Shown here piece after piece: positions 2,418 through 64,000 of a stretch of 64,000 nt of DNA. Both the position numbers and the translations under genes were made by a program. Location: assembly GCA_041662965.1 (NCBI GenBank), contig JBAZRI010000001.1, positions 227,680 through 291,679 on the forward strand. Direction: 5' to 3'. Source of the stretch: Patescibacteria group bacterium (lineage in GTDB: Bacteria > Patescibacteriota > Patescibacteriia > Patescibacteriales > GWC2-42-12). Within the stretch, counting starts at the first letter, position 1; each line of letters opens with the position of its first letter. The notes beneath the pieces are model-generated. The model saw only the letters and a program-made list of their open reading frames with translations. It had not been told where the DNA came from and made no database searches.

Positions 2418-3812
2418 TTAGTATTCCGGCGGAGCTTCTTGGCCGGTTTTTTCCATATTTTTAAAGCTGACCGTATCTTCGTCAAAGAATAAATTAACTT
2501 TGCCGGTCGGCCCGTTTCTATGCTTGGCAATATATATTTCAGCCAGATGTTTCTCGCTCTCGGACAGTTCATCGTAATTATAGCCTCGGTCGGCGGCTTT
2601 CCTATAAATAAACATAACTACGTCCGCGTCCTGCTCAATTGAGCCCGACTCCCTTAAATGGGATAGTTTCGGTATGGCCGGCCTGGATATTTCCGCGGCG
2701 CGCGATAATTGCGATAAAGCAAAGACCGGTATATTAAGTTCGCGGGCGATGCCTTTAAGCCCGCGGGTGATTTCCGAAACTTCCTGCACGCGGTTATCGC
2801 CGTATTTGCCCCGGCCTTCCATTAATTGCAAGTAGTCAATAATTAATAAGCCCAAGCCTTTTTCAACTTGCAGCCGGCGCGCTTTAGTTCTTATTTCCAT
2901 AATATTGGAGCTGGCTGAATCGTCAATATAAATCGGCGCTTCGGATAATCGGCCCATAGCGTCGCCGATGCGCGAAAAATCATTATCTTCTTCTTTGTCC
3001 GATAATTTTCCCGTGCGCATGCGCCATAAGCTGACGTTAGCCTGGGCGCAAAGCATGCGGTCGACTAATTGCTCTTTGCTCATTTCTAGAGAAAATATGC
3101 CGACCGGAACTTTGCTGATAAGGGCTGATTGTCTGGCGATATCAAGGGCTAAAGAAGTTTTTCCCACGCTCGGCCTGGCGGCTAAAATTATTAAATCCGA
3201 TTTTTGCAAACCGGCGAGCAAGTTATCAAGATCATGAAAACCCGTAGGCAAGCCGCGCAATTTTCCGCTTTGCTTATGCAGTTCGTCAATTCTGTCAAAA
3301 GCTTCGGTTAATAAGTTATCAATCGGCTGAAAAACATTTTTTAAATATTTTTGCGAAACGCCAAATAATTTCTGTTCGGCCTCATCAAGCAGTTTTTCAA
3401 TTTCCTCGTCTTCGCGGTAGCCAAGTTCGGTTATTTCGGCCGAAGCGGATAACAGGCGCCTTAAAGTGGCTTTGCGCTGGATAATGGCGGAGTAATGGAC
3501 TACGTGCGCCGAAGTGGCCACAGTATTGCCCAATTCGGCTATATAAGTCCGTCCGCCCACGTCTGCTAATTTGCTTTTTTCTTCAAGTTTTGAGGTTAAG
3601 GTTAAAATATCAATCGGCTCATGGCGGGCGTAAAGCTCCCGCATGGTTTCATAAACAATGCCGTGGCTGTCTTTATAAAAATCTTCCGGGCGCAAAGTAT
3701 CGGCGATTTTAAAAATCGCGTCTTTATCAATCATTAAACAGCCTAAAAGAGAGGCCTCGGCCTCAATATTTTGCGGCGGTAATTTTAAGATAGAAGTTTT
3801 ATTGTCTGCCAT
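2418..3812 (-). CDS. dnaB: Replicative DNA helicase DnaB
   Basis: N-terminal PPQNIEAEASLLGCL, Walker A ARPSVGKTS, IIDYLQLM, SQLSR, IEQDADVV. Confidence 0.95.
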   Translation of the reverse strand: MADNKTSILKLPPQNIEAEASLLGCLMIDKDAIFKIADTLRPEDFYKDSHGIVYETMRELYARHEPIDILTLTSKLEEKSKLADVGGRTYIAELGNTVATSAHVVHYSAIIQRKATLRRLLSASAEITELGYREDEEIEKLLDEAEQKLFGVSQKYLKNVFQPIDNLLTEAFDRIDELHKQSGKLRGLPTGFHDLDNLLAGLQKSDLIILAARPSVGKTSLALDIARQSALISKVPVGIFSLEMSKEQLVDRMLCAQANVSLWRMRTGKLSDKEEDNDFSRIGDAMGRLSEAPIYIDDSASSNIMEIRTKARRLQVEKGLGLLIIDYLQLMEGRGKYGDNRVQEVSEITRGLKGIARELNIPVFALSQLSRAAEISRPAIPKLSHLRESGSIEQDADVVMFIYRKAADRGYNYDELSESEKHLAEIYIAKHRNGPTGKVNLFFDEDTVSFKNMEKTGQEAPPEY

Positions 3813-3909
3813 ATTTTTATAATACCTTGCAGGGCCGGTTTAAGCAAGAGTAAAATTTGCCGTTTTTTAAACTTTTCATCCACGTTTTTTCCACTACTGC
3901 CCATAGCCT

Positions 3910-4001
3910 ATAACTCGCAACTCGTAACTAAAAATGCCGCAAAATAAGGAGTTGTGAGTTATGACCCGCCTGCCATACGGGCAGGGTTGCGAGTTGCGGG
4001 A
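3910..4001. repeat. ACTCGTAAC/GTTACGAGT-type short palindromic repeat cluster
   Basis: ataactcgcaactcgtaact ... gagttgtgagttatgac ... cctgcc-atac-gggcagg ... ttgcgagttgcggg. A related block lies at 25358-25426. Confidence 0.6.
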
Positions 4002-4079
4002 GTTTTTCTTGCTATTTTTAAAGATATATGTTATTTTAATAATAATTAAGACATCCGTCAGCACGGATTTTTTAATTTT

Positions 4080-4155
4080 GCGCTGTTAGCTCAGCTGGTA
4101 GAGCAGCTCCCTTTTAAGGAGAAGGTCACAGGTTCGAATCCTGTACGGCGCACCA
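4080..4155 (+). tRNA. tRNA-Lys (anticodon TTT), CCA encoded
   Basis: Hand-folded cloverleaf: acceptor GCGCTGT/ACGGCGC, anticodon loop CTTTTAA, T-arm ACAGG-TTCGAAT-CCTGT. Confidence 0.9.
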
Positions 4156-4187
4156 TTTTATTTCGTCCTAAATCAAAAGTTAAAATT

Positions 4188-4260
4188 GCCGTCTTAGCTC
4201 AGCTGGTAGAGCAACGGTTTTGTAAACCGTAGGTCGTCGGTTCGAATCCGACAGACGGCT
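4188..4260 (+). tRNA. tRNA-Thr (anticodon TGT), no encoded CCA
   Basis: Acceptor GCCGTCT/AGACGGC, anticodon stem ACGGT/ACCGT with loop TTTGTAA, T-arm GTCGG-TTCGAAT-CCGAC. Confidence 0.9.
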
Positions 4261-4320
4261 CTGAGAAAAATAAAAAATAAATATAAATATAAATCCAATT
4301 AAATAAGGGGGTGAGGAGAG

Positions 4321-4914
4321 ATGATGCGCTCATTAAATGAAATTTTAGAAAATGTAAACAGTACCGTAGCCAATAGAATAAGCGCTTCCCGCATTTTGAT
4401 GTTGCCATTCTATCTAATCTACCATTATATGGGCGAATATAGCATATCATTCGCTCTGGCTTTTTATATGGTAATCTCGGATTTTCTAGATGGGTATGTG
4501 GCGCGACTATACGGCGAGATTAGCGAATTCGGGAAAATTTTGGACCCGATAGCGGATAAGGCCGTTACTTTAACTTTGTTTGTCTCTTTATTGGCAGGCT
4601 CGTATGGTTTGATTGAACGGTCTCTTTGGCGCTCAATCATTATAACTTCGTTAGGTCTGTTGGCGTTGGAAGCAGTTCTTATTATTTTAGGGCATTGGGC
4701 GGCTAAGAAAAATTTGCATAATGGCTCTAATCTATTCGGGAAAGCTAAGATGATAACCGAGAGCTATATTTTTTTATTCGGTTATTATTTTTTCTTTCTC
4801 AACCCAGGCTTATCTCCATTGGCGGAAATCGGCAGATCAATTAATGATTTGCTCTATGTGGCCGTTGGACTAGCTTTTTTAAGCATAATAGGCCACATTA
4901 CAGAAAAAAGATAA
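4321..4914 (+). CDS. CDP-alcohol phosphatidyltransferase family protein (PgsA-like)
   Basis: Family signature DFLDGYVARLYGEISEFGKILDPIADK, plus TM segments. Strong SD GAGGAG just upstream; the start may be 4324. Confidence 0.8.
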   Translation: MMRSLNEILENVNSTVANRISASRILMLPFYLIYHYMGEYSISFALAFYMVISDFLDGYVARLYGEISEFGKILDPIADKAVTLTLFVSLLAGSYGLIERSLWRSIIITSLGLLALEAVLIILGHWAAKKNLHNGSNLFGKAKMITESYIFLFGYYFFFLNPGLSPLAEIGRSINDLLYVAVGLAFLSIIGHITEKR

Positions 4915-4936
4915 CCAGGGCTACATACAATAGCCT

Positions 4937-4963
4937 AGAGCTTTCGCGAGAGAGCTCTTTTTT
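4937..4963 (+). terminator. Hairpin plus T run between the phosphatidyltransferase gene and mtaB-like
   Basis: AGAGCT-ttcgcgagag-AGCTCT followed by tttttt directly before the ATG at 4964. Confidence 0.5.
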
Positions 4964-6301
4964 ATGAAAAATATTAAAATAAAAATTTATACCTTAGGCT
5001 GTAAAGTTAATCAGTATGATTCGGGTAAACTAGCCGGCGAGCTGGTTCGGGCCGGCTTTATAACCGCGGACAAAAACGCCGATATAGCCGTAATCAATAG
5101 CTGCGCCGTGACTAAAACTGCCATAATTAAAAGCGGCCGCATGGTTAAATTGGCTAAAAAAGAAAACCCCAAAGCTAAAATCGTTTTAGCCGGCTGCTGG
5201 CCGAAAACCTATGGAATAAAGAATATTGCCGCTGATTTTATTATTGCCAAAGGCGAGGTCGGCGAGGCTATTAAAAAAATTGCGAATCGCTTCTCTCTAT
5301 TTAAGGATAAGATCTTTACGCCGGCTATCGCCGAGCTCGCGCTAACCGGCCGGACAAGGTATTTTATAAAAATTCAGGACGGCTGCGAGCAGTATTGCAG
5401 TTATTGCGTTATCCCTTACGCGCGCGGCAAATTAATTAGCAGGGGAGAGAAAGAAATTATTCGCGAAATTGAACGGGCGGTAAAAGCCGGATATCGGGAG
5501 ATCGTGCTGTCCGGAATCCATTTAGGGTTGTATGGAAAAACGAGCCAATTGTCATTGCGAGCGACCGGAGGGAGCGAAGCAATCTCACGTACTCGGAGCT
5601 TAACCGGAGATTGCCGCGTCGCTGGCGCTCCTCGCAATGACAAGCTGACGGCATTATTAAAAAAATTAGTTAAAATAAAAGATCTCGGCCGGATCAGGTT
5701 AAGTTCAATTGAAATCACCGAAGTATCGAGCGAGCTGATAAATTTAATGGCCGGGTCAAATAAAATTTGTAAGCATCTGCATATACCATTGCAGTCCGGC
5801 TCGGATAAAATTTTAAAATTAATGAATCGGCCATATGATGTAAAATATTTTTCTGGCCGGATAAAAAAAATTAGGCAAATTATGCCGGATATTGCCATTA
5901 CTACCGACGTGATTACCGGCTTCCCGGGCGAGACCGAGAAAGATTTTAAAGACACGGAAAAATTTATTAAGCGGATAAAATTCAGCCGTCTGCATGTGTT
6001 TCCATATTCGGCTCACGAAAAAACGCCGGCCGCTAAATTCCCCGGCCAAGTTAAAGAAAAAAATAAAGCGCAACGGGCGGAAAAATTAAGGCGGCTTGGC
6101 CTTAAGCTGGCTGAAGATTATAAAAAGAAATTCAAGGGCAGGGAGCTGGAGATTACCGTGGAGCGGATAAAGCAAGATGAAATTATCGGTAAAACCGAGT
6201 TTTATTTTGATATTTTATTTAAAAAGCGACAGCTTATCGGCGGAGAAGCCAGCCAAAGTAAAAAATTAATAGGCACGATTGTTAAGGTAAAAAACAATTA
6301 A
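4964..6301 (+). CDS. mtaB: MiaB/MtaB-family radical-SAM tRNA methylthiotransferase carrying an in-frame repeat insertion
   Basis: MTTase N-domain (IYTLGCKVNQYDS), radical-SAM cluster (GCEQYCSYCVIPYARG) and a TRAM-like C-terminus. Residues LSLRATGGSEAISRTRSLTGDCRVAGAPRNDK are encoded by a palindromic repeat. Confidence 0.85.
   Translation: MKNIKIKIYTLGCKVNQYDSGKLAGELVRAGFITADKNADIAVINSCAVTKTAIIKSGRMVKLAKKENPKAKIVLAGCWPKTYGIKNIAADFIIAKGEVGEAIKKIANRFSLFKDKIFTPAIAELALTGRTRYFIKIQDGCEQYCSYCVIPYARGKLISRGEKEIIREIERAVKAGYREIVLSGIHLGLYGKTSQLSLRATGGSEAISRTRSLTGDCRVAGAPRNDKLTALLKKLVKIKDLGRIRLSSIEITEVSSELINLMAGSNKICKHLHIPLQSGSDKILKLMNRPYDVKYFSGRIKKIRQIMPDIAITTDVITGFPGETEKDFKDTEKFIKRIKFSRLHVFPYSAHEKTPAAKFPGQVKEKNKAQRAEKLRRLGLKLAEDYKKKFKGRELEITVERIKQDEIIGKTEFYFDILFKKRQLIGGEASQSKKLIGTIVKVKNN
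5550..5642. repeat. TGTCAT-hairpin palindromic element inserted in frame inside the mtaB-like CDS
   Basis: 93 bp (31 codons), TGTCATTGCGAGCGACCGGAGGGAGCGAAGCAATCTC ... GAGATTGCCGCGTCGCTGGCGCTCCTCGCAATGACA. Near-identical in layout to 58563-58654. Confidence 0.85.
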
Positions 6302-25369: not shown

Positions 25370-25426
25370 CCCGCAACTCAAAACTTAAAATCGGGAGCTA
25401 CGAGTTATGGGTTACGAGTTATGAGA
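25358..25426. repeat. ACTCGTAAC/GTTACGAGT-type palindromic repeat cluster
   Basis: gtagctcgtaacccgcaactc ... gggagctacgagttatgggttacgagttatgag. Confidence 0.6.
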
Positions 25427-25484
25427 TTTGTGGATAAACTTGTTGATAACTGCCTGAGAAAAATTGTATAATATTTCAAATAAA

Positions 25485-25515
25485 ACATCCGCCGATAAAT
25501 GACGGATGTTTTTTA
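25485..25515 (+). terminator. Rho-independent terminator
   Basis: ACATCCG-ccgataaatga-CGGATGT followed by ttttt. Confidence 0.65.
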
Positions 25516-25561
25516 TTATTTTTAATTTAACTTTAGCTTAAATTTTAGTGGCGGCTTATCA

Positions 25562-25590
25562 TTGACAAATGGCAAATTGTGGTATATAAT
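25562..25590 (+). promoter_or_regulatory. Consensus sigma-70-type promoter of the dcw cluster (TTGACA, 17-nt spacer, TATAAT)
   Basis: ttgaca aatggcaaattgtggta tataat: both hexamers are perfect. Confidence 0.7.
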
Positions 25591-25625
25591 TATAGTATTA
25601 TGGTGAATGGTGGGGAATTGTGGCG
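25577..25625 (+). promoter_or_regulatory. Cluster of TGTGG/TGGTG repeats overlapping and following the promoter (candidate MraZ operator)
   Basis: tTGTGGt (25578), aTGGTGa (25601), aTGGTGGGG (25608), tTGTGGc (25619). Confidence 0.35.
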
Positions 25626-25853
25626 ATTCATCCGCGAAACTATCTTCAAGTTATTTAAAATAAAAACAAAAAACAAGCCCGCCTCGCTAAAGCTATGGCG
25701 GACAAGCCGGCCAAGACAATAACGCCGGCCAAACAAGGCCTGTTTCGTGCCTAACGAAACAAATTTTAATTAAGGCAAAGAAGGGGTCTTATCAGCGGCT
25801 TGCCGCTGGTCGGACTTCTCGTTAGCCTTAGTTCTAACTTCTTAATTTTTCAC

Positions 25854-32250: not shown

Positions 32251-32252
32251 AG

Positions 32253-32324
32253 TACCGCTACGGGGAATCGAACCCCGATTACCAGGATGAGAACCTGGCG
32301 TCCTAACCGTTAGACGATAGCGGC
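32253..32324 (-). tRNA. tRNA-Glu (anticodon CTC)
   Basis: The reverse complement folds as acceptor GCCGCTA/TAGCGGT, anticodon stem CCAGG/CCTGG with loop TTCTCAT, and T-arm CGGGG-TTCGATT-CCCCG. Confidence 0.85.
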
Positions 32325-48023: not shown

Positions 48024-48062
48024 TCATTTCAATAAATCTAAATTTCTACGGGCTTAACCTAG

Positions 48063-48107
48063 ATTCCCGCCCGCCTAGCGGACTGGTAAACCTGCGCGGG
48101 AATGACA
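48063..48107. repeat. Solo TGTCAT-hairpin unit just 3' of the metallopeptidase-like gene
   Basis: ATTCCCGC-ccgcctagcggactggtaaacct-GCGGGAATGACA. A degenerate partner aGTCATTTC lies at 48022. Confidence 0.6.
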
Positions 48108-48613
48108 ATAAAAAATTAGTCGCTTACAGCGGTAGTTATTTAAAGGGGGAATTACTATAACGGCTATACTTTTCTAATATAATAGCGTCGCACAATATAA
48201 CTTATGCGACGCCAGACTAACCTTTGATATAATCTATTTGCTTGAGTTTATGCCCGGCCTATTGAATTAACATGCCGAACAGGCTGATTTGCGGGTAAAA
48301 TAATAATATGAATTTCAATAAAAGTAAAAATAAGCCGACAATCAAAAAACAAAATACTATTACCCCTAAAATAAACAATGTTTTAAAAATTCCTTCCATA
48401 AGCTTATTGGCGCATTAAAATTTAAATGCCCGCCTGGTACCTATGTACCTTTTTAGGTTTAAATTTTAATAGGTTTATTAACATAAATTTAATTTTTTTC
48501 AATAGCCGGGTTATTTTTTCTGAAATTATGCTGTTATATAATCTCGCCTGCCTGCTTGCTACCAGTATATAACATTTTTTAATATTATGTAATTAGTTAT
48601 GTGTCGCAAAATA

Positions 48614-62579: not shown

Positions 62580-63398
62580 TTAACTTTTTTTCGGCCGGCC
62601 GCGTTTTTTAGTTTTTTTGTCTTCGCCGGCTTCTTCCGGTATTCCTTCTTTCTTTTCCGCTTCTTTAGTTTCCGCGGCTTCAGTTTTTATTTCTTCGGCC
62701 TCTTCTTTAACGGTTTTTCCGATTAAAGCGTTAAATTGATTTATTAAAATATCCACGGATTTATTAAAGGCGTCTTCCGGAGTTATCGTGCCGTCGGTGG
62801 TTAAATCCAAAATCAGTTTATCCCAGTTGGTCATTTTGCCGATGCGGACGTTTTCAATGTTGACGCCGACCGACATTACCGGAGAAAAAATAGAATCCAT
62901 TTCAATGTAGCCGATTTCATTTTTAGCGCTTTCACGGCTTTCAACCGTTATATAACCCGACCCTCGAGAAACGGAAATTTCCATGCTTAGGCTCCCTGCC
63001 ATATCGGTAACATGGCCTAAAACCAAGTCAGGATTGGCTATTTCCACCAAGCTGTTCTTTTTTATATCAGAAGCTTTAACTTCTTTCTCGCCGCGGGCAT
63101 CAAGCTCAAGCTTCACAACCTCGTCAGTGAAAACTTTTAAGCGCAGTTTCTTTAAATTCAAAATAAGCTCTAAAACATCTTCTTTAACATGGGGTAAAGA
63201 CATAAATTCATGGTCAGCGCCTTTAATTTTTACGCCGATAGGGGCGGCTCCGGGCAAAGAAGACAATAATACCCTTCTTAAAGCATTGCCGATAGTAGCG
63301 CCATAGCCCGGGTAGCATGGCTCAATGATAATTTGCTTGTTGTTCGCGCTTGAACCTTTAACAAATTCTATTTTTTGCGGCAAAGCTATTTTTTCCAT
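62580..63398 (-). CDS. rpoA: DNA-directed RNA polymerase alpha subunit, N-terminal domain only, with an acidic tail ending in an AT-hook-like KKRGRPKKS
   Basis: GYGATIGNALRRVLLSSLPGAAP, HEF..L..V.EDV.E.ILNLK. No HhH C-terminal-domain sequence after residue ~228. Confidence 0.9.
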   Translation of the reverse strand: MEKIALPQKIEFVKGSSANNKQIIIEPCYPGYGATIGNALRRVLLSSLPGAAPIGVKIKGADHEFMSLPHVKEDVLELILNLKKLRLKVFTDEVVKLELDARGEKEVKASDIKKNSLVEIANPDLVLGHVTDMAGSLSMEISVSRGSGYITVESRESAKNEIGYIEMDSIFSPVMSVGVNIENVRIGKMTNWDKLILDLTTDGTITPEDAFNKSVDILINQFNALIGKTVKEEAEEIKTEAAETKEAEKKEGIPEEAGEDKKTKKRGRPKKS

Positions 63399-63441: not shown

Positions 63442-64000
63442 TTATTTAGAATAGAACTCAACGATCATCTGGCTGTTGATTTTTGATTCAAAATCTTCTT
63501 TAGCCGGCTGATGCAAAACTTTGGCGCTTAAATCTTTAATCTCAAGATTAAGCCAGCTCGGGGTTTCTATTTTTTTAAGTTTTTCCGATAAATTAGCGAA
63601 GTGCTTATTTTTTCGGCTTGACTGCCTAACCTTTATAATATCGCCGGTTTTGACGTTAAATGACGGAATATTAACTTTTTTATCATTAACTCGGAAATGG
63701 CCGTGGTTGGCTAGAACTCTGGCCTGGGCCCTTGACGGGGCGAAGCCTAAGCGGTAAATAACATTATCAAGCCTGGTTTCCAATATTTTCATTAAATTTT
63801 CGCCAGCCTCGCCTTTTTGCTTAATGGCCCTTAAAAAACTTAATTTGAATTGTTTTTCCATCAAATTATAAATTCTTTTGGCTTTCTGTTTTTCTCGTAA
63901 CTGCATGTTGTAGCCGCTCTGTCTGGCTCGGCCTTTCGGGCCATGCAGGCCCGGCGGATAGTTTCTTTTAACTATCGCGCATTTAGCCGTAAAGCATCTC
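63442..64000 (-). CDS. rpsD: 30S ribosomal protein S4, 5' end beyond the window edge
   Basis: The frame stays open upstream of the tracked Met: ...CFTAKCAIVKRNYPPGLHGPKGRARQSGYNMQLREKQK. S4 RNA-binding domain (LDNVIYRLGFA.SR.QAR). Confidence 0.9.
   Translation of the reverse strand, partial: RCFTAKCAIVKRNYPPGLHGPKGRARQSGYNMQLREKQKAKRIYNLMEKQFKLSFLRAIKQKGEAGENLMKILETRLDNVIYRLGFAPSRAQARVLANHGHFRVNDKKVNIPSFNVKTGDIIKVRQSSRKNKHFANLSEKLKKIETPSWLNLEIKDLSAKVLHQPAKEDFESKINSQMIVEFYSK

Follow-up and report, generated by a model that had tools for sequence, protein, structure and literature searches.

What does a bacterial RNA polymerase (RNAP) use to contact the DNA upstream of its promoters when the α subunit has no C-terminal domain (CTD)? 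This question was raised by the rpoA gene in the 64-kb stretch of DNA that we analyzed (referred to here as the window), which comes from an ultra-small bacterium of the Patescibacteria (CPR). Core RNAP contains two α subunits. Class I activators target the α-CTD, which also binds A/T-rich UP elements in their minor groove, a groove that it is said to read (Ross et al. 2001). The domain has been treated as a universal bacterial feature and as the hub of UP-element recognition and class I activation. A 2025 study called it ubiquitous in Bacteria (PMC12531629).

The rpoA gene and its missing α-CTD

The rpoA gene was located on the minus strand at positions 62580 to 63398, in an open reading frame (ORF) that encoded 272 amino acids (aa) plus a stop codon at 62580 to 62582. 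The translation agreed with the protein quoted in a preliminary description of this DNA, which had noted a normal N-terminal domain (NTD) up to the residues ILINQFNALIG. The window ORFs had the order of a canonical α operon: rpsD (ribosomal protein S4; 63442 to 63906, minus strand) was the upstream neighbor of rpoA, rplQ (ribosomal protein L17; 62216 to 62566, minus strand) was the next gene, and rplM and rpsI followed. The rpsD-rpoA-rplQ order was also found in related loci (it was Pfam-labeled in L029 and L030), and the rplQ start ATGAGACAT (MRH...) recurred after rpoA in most of them.

The α-NTD, which is the assembly and dimerization domain, covered residues 1 to 228 (62715 to 63398, minus strand). 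This assignment was based on matches to the two α-NTD models in Pfam (PF01193, E=7e-19, and PF01000, E=7e-26) and on an AlphaFold2 model built from a 46-sequence alignment, in which the α-NTD was confident over residues ~9 to 230. RpoA also passed the TIGR02027 rpoA equivalog, with 243.7 bits versus a cutoff of 227.8. It scored below the cutoffs of the PRK05182 sub-models because only profile positions ~1 to 250 matched. Likewise, α subunits with solved structures in the PDB aligned to residues ~8 to 250 only (E=1e-52). Judged from these matches, the window protein is a genuine bacterial-type RNAP α subunit.

A Pfam scan of RpoA yielded no match to the α-CTD model PF03118, and the same model was matched by 0 of the 120 nearest RpoA homologues (65 to 100% identity, 254 to 291 aa). 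A single-sequence search of all window frames with the Escherichia coli and Bacillus subtilis α-CTDs was also negative. In addition, we built a profile from 87 α-CTDs collected in the present analysis and searched it against six-frame translations of the window and loci L001 to L025 (244 kb); no CTD was detected, and the E values were above 0.9. As a positive control, the same profile recovered the CTD in three Planctomycetes loci, with E values of 1e-17 to 1e-21.

Because rplQ started 13 nt past the rpoA stop codon (the preliminary description had given 14 nt, a trivial difference), there was no space for a hidden CTD. A hidden or frameshifted CTD was ruled out by this gap and by the lack of a CTD signal in any frame, and the frameshift or assembly error that the preliminary description had allowed for did not materialize. 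A stand-alone CTD gene was also considered, and none was found within the 64 kb or in the 25 flanking related loci. The Pfam, all-frame, and profile searches agreed with the earlier claim: the α-CTD was truly absent from RpoA, with neither a frameshift nor a separate copy in the sequence examined.

The acidic spacer and the AT-hook tip

After ILINQFNALIG, RpoA ran on as KTVKEEAEEIKTEAAETKEAEKKEGIPEEAGEDKKTKKRGRPKKS. The tail consisted of a 32-residue acidic spacer, TVKEEAEEIKTEAAETKEAEKKEGIPEEAGED (residues 229 to 260; 62619 to 62714, minus strand), and a basic C-terminal tip, KKTKKRGRPKKS (residues 261 to 272; 62583 to 62618, minus strand). Thus, translation bore out the acidic tail and the AT-hook-like KKRGRPKKS ending that had been described previously. 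The AlphaFold2 pLDDT was below 50 for residues 232 to 267 and 270 to 272, and the tail was therefore predicted to be disordered. The R-G-R-P core of the tip corresponded to R266-G267-R268-P269, and it was flanked by basic residues on both sides (KK-RGRP-KK). Where basic residues flank it, an RGRP core is a ligand of the narrow minor groove in AT-rich DNA. A lone AT-hook, as known from HMGA, binds DNA weakly by itself.

In the Pfam AT_hook model (PF02178), residues 263 to 272 of the full protein gave a sub-threshold match of 11.3 bits. The tail alone scored 14.6 bits, and the comparison sequences scored 16.2 bits (human HMGA1a) and 17.9 bits (WhiB7) against a gathering score of 17.4. Since HMGA1a itself fell under 17.4, this cutoff does not separate true single hooks. 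In this model, the RpoA motif scored much as bona fide hooks do.

The tail was unusual among the 63 called window genes, as RpoA had both the most basic C terminus and the most acidic 30-aa stretch. The latter was located within residues 229 to 260 and contained 13 D/E residues, the highest value in the window. RpoA was also the only real ORF of the 64-kb window with a basic-flanked RGRP. These charge ranks and the unique RGRP showed that, in the window, basic tails and GRP motifs are not a general trait of the proteome. Each RpoA chain contained a single GRP, and an RNAP would have two only via the α dimer.

The preliminary description had named conservation of the tail among relatives as a test that could refute its proposal. 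We found that the hook was almost invariant and that the preceding linker was not. Specifically, a [KR][KR]GRP[KR]K ending was found in 110 of the 120 closest homologues (65 to 100% identity). When all 122 AT-hook tails were compared, 95 had the exact KKRGRPKK, the flanks of the RGRP core were K or R in >97%, and the core was 3 to 6 residues from the C terminus. Column entropy was 0 to 0.5 bits in the hook, whereas the spacer, which was free to vary in sequence, reached about 3 bits. The spacer had a median length of 33 aa (range, 17 to 60 aa), a D/E content of 37%, and a median net charge of -6.

The codons for the R, G, R, and P residues differed synonymously across nine genomes (CGC, AGA, CGG, or AGG for R; GGC, GGT, or GGA for G; and CCG, CCA, or CCT for P). 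This turnover indicated that the constraint was on the peptide and not on the DNA, and a DNA-level cause of the conservation, such as a signal for rplQ translation, was ruled out. On the evidence of these alignments, the hook peptide is under strong purifying selection. As read from the sequence, the helix-hairpin-helix CTD is replaced by a predicted disordered tail composed of a ~30-residue acidic spacer and a canonical AT-hook (KKRGRPKK).

Tail types among related α subunits

The species-level genomes with a related RpoA were titled Patescibacteria, Falkowbacteria, Parcubacteria, or Paceibacterota. Many loci carried the titles "uncultured Gammaproteobacteria bacterium" (TPA) or "Bacillota bacterium" (L001, L003, L006, L011 to L013, L016, L018 to L021, and L023 to L025); on genomes with a Patescibacteria-type CTD-less RpoA, such titles are probably placeholder or wrong labels. 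The CTD was missing in 25 of 25 related loci, and the tails fell into three classes: an AT-hook behind an acidic spacer, a lysine-rich end (such as KKKSKK or KKTKK) behind an acidic spacer, and an acidic stretch only. Purely acidic tails with no hook were found in L006, L023, L024, P0127, P0128, and P0138. Other CTD-less lineages (P0171, P0184, P0186, and P0198 to P0200) had wholly basic tails with no acidic block. The GC content of AT-hook loci (0.37) and lysine-rich loci (0.40) showed no clear difference.

For a broader view, 1.84 billion 50%-identity representatives were searched exhaustively with the NTD alone, and the best 150 matches were classified. Among these 150 matches, 88 had a CTD, ~40 were genuinely CTD-less, and the rest were fragments or frameshifted junk. 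The ~40 CTD-less representatives included 26 with lysine-rich tails, 11 with acidic tails, and 3 to 5 with an AT-hook, as counted at the 50%-identity level.

Two of the representatives with a CTD, P0131 and P0150, were labeled Patescibacteria. PF03118 was present in 120 of 120 relatives of P0131, and the named relatives included Candidatus Moranbacteria and Parcubacteria GW2011 genomes. CTD loss does not extend to the whole CPR, since a normal CTD is kept in Moranbacteria and other Patescibacteria. Only some lineages of Patescibacteria have thus lost it, and this holds even inside "Parcubacteria."

We also generated a neighbor-joining tree of the NTDs. The tree had no bootstrap, and it was star-like and unreliable at depth among the 50%-identity representatives, so only the window's own clade is interpretable. 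The window's clade was predominantly AT-hook. According to the tree, the hook had given way to a lysine-rich end at least three times independently within this clade (P0039/43/53/64, P0101/106/119/120, and L009), which also included two acidic-only members. A lysine-rich sister clade in the same tree had an AT-hook member, L013/P0154.

A few of the related entries had unusual architectures. P0154 (475 aa) consisted of a squalene/phytoene-synthase fragment fused to a partial α-NTD and ended in KKRGRPKKS; this fusion is probably a chimeric gene call or an assembly error. P0123 (L030, positions 3001 to 4581; GCA_003864475.1, BGZO01000033.1) was a 526-aa RpoA with two tandem α-NTDs and then one α-CTD in a single ORF. 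Its two NTDs were just 52% identical to each other, and the gene was part of a canonical rpsD-rpoA-rplQ operon. P0123 may be a genuine single-chain α "dimer" with one CTD. P0121 (L029, positions 4001 to 5710; ENA ERZ28644208 scaffold_297) was 569 aa long and had the same NTD-NTD-CTD order. Its halves were ~99% identical, and the most likely explanation is a tandem repeat created by assembly and not a biological fusion.

Possible functions of the tail and comparison with known systems

The reading that we somewhat favor, with a probability of roughly 0.55, is that the tips would serve as a pair of minimal anchors on upstream DNA and take over the UP-element function of the α-CTD, with activator docking simply lost. 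Because RNAP has two α subunits, there would be two flexible AT-hook tips per polymerase, tethered behind its promoter-binding face. Ahead of the -35 element, the tips would enter the narrow minor groove of A/T-rich DNA or, in a looser version, would clamp the DNA there electrostatically. In both versions, promoter binding would gain an UP-element-like boost that is independent of activators. The acidic spacer may keep the tip extended, lower non-specific sticking, or both. The docking surface for class I activators would be gone along with the CTD, and regulation in these reduced genomes would consequently rely less on recruitment through the α-CTD. The DNA binding, the AT preference, the location upstream of promoters, and the regulatory consequences are what we infer.

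We compared this reading with the promoters predicted in the window. At 13 predicted strong promoters, the 30 nt that precede the -35 element had an A+T content of 0.70 versus 0.66 in the intergenic background, which is not a significant excess (p ~0.19). Two tRNA promoter regions served as single anecdotal cases. The region for the tandem tRNA-Lys(UUU) and tRNA-Thr(UGU) genes (4080 to 4261, plus strand) had a GC-rich stretch upstream of the -35 element, and the region for tRNA-Glu(CUC) (32252 to 32324, minus strand) had TTGATA-N18-TATAAT with an A-tract just upstream. Two gene-free gaps in the window (48024 to 48613, 590 nt, and 25370 to 25799, 430 nt) lacked ORFs of at least 70 aa, and Rfam gave no credible match in either; unrecognised RNAs or regulatory DNA might be located there.

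An alternative that we regard as unlikely is a generic polycationic tether, in which the tail would have no selectivity for AT or UP sequences. The tip would raise the non-specific affinity of RNAP for DNA, in nucleoid retention or facilitated diffusion, or for RNA, nascent or other, and the GRP core would be just one basic ending among several that can stand in for each other. This alternative is consistent with the replacements of the hook by lysine-rich ends on at least three occasions in the window's clade of the neighbor-joining tree, with the AT-hook member inside the lysine-rich sister clade, and with the excess of lysine-rich tails (26) over AT-hooks (3 to 5) among the 50%-identity representatives. 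It also agrees with the lack of a significant upstream AT excess at the predicted window promoters (p ~0.19, n=13) and with the tolerance of CarD for H1-like basic tails in place of its hooks (PMC8156234). However, in the AT-hook clade, R-G-R-P and the K/R pair on each side of it were almost invariant down to 65% NTD identity, and their codons turned over synonymously. This constraint far exceeds what charge would need, and a merely cationic tip should drift like the lysine-rich tails.

The same swaps bear on the anchor reading itself. Together with the few tipless relatives, the repeated replacement of the hook by lysine-rich ends suggests that the tip is a basic DNA anchor of a generic kind and not a strict reader of AT or UP sequences. 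Because relatives with lysine-rich and purely acidic tails function hookless, AT-specific recognition is dispensable in evolution. The missing AT excess at the predicted window promoters, the GC-rich stretch near the tRNA-Lys/Thr promoter, the similar GC content of AT-hook and lysine-rich loci, and the weak DNA binding of a lone AT-hook also count against the anchor reading.

It is improbable, in our view, that the tail works as an electrostatic regulator, in which the acidic spacer would be functional as a nucleic-acid mimic and the basic tip would form an intramolecular latch or cluster RNAPs head to tail. Acidic mimics of this type include the disordered tail of the Bacillus δ subunit and region 1.1 of σ70. 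Such a role would account for a spacer that stays acidic (37% D/E, net charge about -6) despite drift in its sequence, for the acidic part being kept alone in L006, L023, P0127, P0128, and P0138, and for an acidic-then-basic block pattern that was unique among the window genes. The wholly basic tails of P0171, P0184, P0186, and P0198 to P0200 argue against it, and a latch would not need the exact RGRP core.

Even less probable is that the tail works as a short linear motif to which a protein partner docks (a regulator, for instance, or a factor of a host or epibiont), and that it would thus replace the activator-contact role of the α-CTD and not its DNA role. An extremely conserved 9-residue peptide that ends a disordered region is typical of short linear motifs, but no candidate partner was found, the peptide coincides exactly with the known minor-groove-binding consensus, and its interchangeability with lysine-rich ends favors a nucleic-acid target. 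Finally, an artefact, whether a truncated or frameshifted gene, an assembly error that conceals a CTD, or a tail that is the decaying remnant of a linker, is effectively refuted: frameshifted or chimeric junk does occur among metagenomic RpoA entries (the "other" class and P0121) and nothing else speaks for it, whereas rplQ follows within 13 nt, no frame holds a CTD, the same architecture recurs in 25 independent genomes and >120 protein clusters, and the tip is under purifying selection.

A large and diverse clade has thus given up the CTD and gone on to fix, at the same tethered position, a minimal peptide of the minor-groove-binding type. That the CTD was dropped and a hook was fixed in its place suggests that upstream DNA contact is what selection demands and that activator docking is expendable in reduced genomes. 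These α subunits provide a natural minimal system for asking what the α-CTD contributes, a concrete hypothesis on how promoters are built in CPR bacteria that are still uncultured, and a compact, portable peptide tag that could be tried in engineered polymerases. Somewhat less likely than not is the reading that a 9-residue, eukaryote-style AT-hook swapped for the 85-residue α-CTD, twice per core RNAP, has rebuilt promoter-upstream recognition in a major radiation of Patescibacteria. If so, it would be the first AT-hook integral to a cellular core RNAP, these organisms would have a distinct promoter grammar in which A/T-tract upstream elements are read by a disordered peptide, and they would have essentially no α-CTD-dependent activation. 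No description of an AT-hook or a basic tail on RpoA was found in full-text searches of literature that covers part of the journals. As far as we can tell, CTD loss has already been noted and barely characterised, and its replacement by an acidic spacer and an AT-hook is undescribed.

The canonical α-CTD of E. coli and B. subtilis resembles the tail of the window RpoA in its flexible tether to the α-NTD, in its two copies per RNAP, and in its target, as the A/T-rich minor groove upstream of the -35 element would be expected for both. The two differ in that RpoA has a disordered peptide of 9 to 12 residues rather than an 85-residue helix-hairpin-helix domain. The tail also lacks the 261, 265, and 287 activator and sigma determinants, and the class I surface is missing.

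Other α-type subunits are known to lack a CTD. Archaeal RpoD and eukaryotic Rpb3-AC40 are α-NTD homologues that naturally have none. Unlike archaeal RpoD, the window protein is of the bacterial type, as indicated by TIGR02027 and the α operon, and it scored 16.6 bits in the archaeal D model. CTD-less α subunits have been reported for Hodgkinia, Tremblaya, and Euglena chloroplasts and, in one sentence, for Parcubacteria (PMC8321222); the main text of the paper cited for the loss in Parcubacteria is silent on RpoA and RNA polymerase (PMC4508563). These proteins are similar to the window protein in that the CTD was lost in a reduced genome. They differ in that the loss has been described as erosion without replacement, and we found no report of a conserved AT-hook or basic tail on them.

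Further parallels were found in RNAP-associated factors. Mycobacterial WhiB7 sits on sigma and reaches promoter DNA with an AT-hook at its C terminus (PMC8786299). Like the window RpoA, WhiB7 has a single RGRP hook at the extreme C terminus of an RNAP-attached polypeptide, and the AT_hook scores of the two were similar. In contrast, WhiB7 is an accessory, inducible Fe-S factor of the WhiB family on sigma region 4, and the window hook is built into a core subunit, where it is constitutive and present twice. The Pfam scan found no WhiB domain (PF02467) in RpoA, and WhiB7 did match that model.

In the case of Myxococcus xanthus CarD, an RNAP-β-binding domain is followed by an acidic region of ~50 residues and four RGRP hooks, and the protein binds AT tracts at -63 and -77 (PMC8156234). 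CarD and RpoA share an acidic disordered stretch that precedes the RGRP hook or hooks of an RNAP-associated protein. CarD differs in having four hooks and in being an accessory factor of the CarD_CdnL_TRCF family, whereas RpoA has one hook per chain, fused to the α-NTD. Measured against the HMGA-like domains of CarD and HMGA, RpoA has the adjacent acidic disordered region but not the 3 to 4 joint hooks. In CarD, histone H1 or a different basic disordered tail can take the place of the hook domain (PMC8156234). Both proteins thus tolerate lysine-rich, H1-like tails in exchange for hooks, experimentally in CarD and naturally in RpoA, and this parallel supports a nucleic-acid-binding role for the tip. 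The proposal made in the preliminary description, that an AT-hook may stand in for the α-CTD at UP-like contacts and that class I activation would be reduced, fits both WhiB7 and CarD and is plausible by analogy with them.
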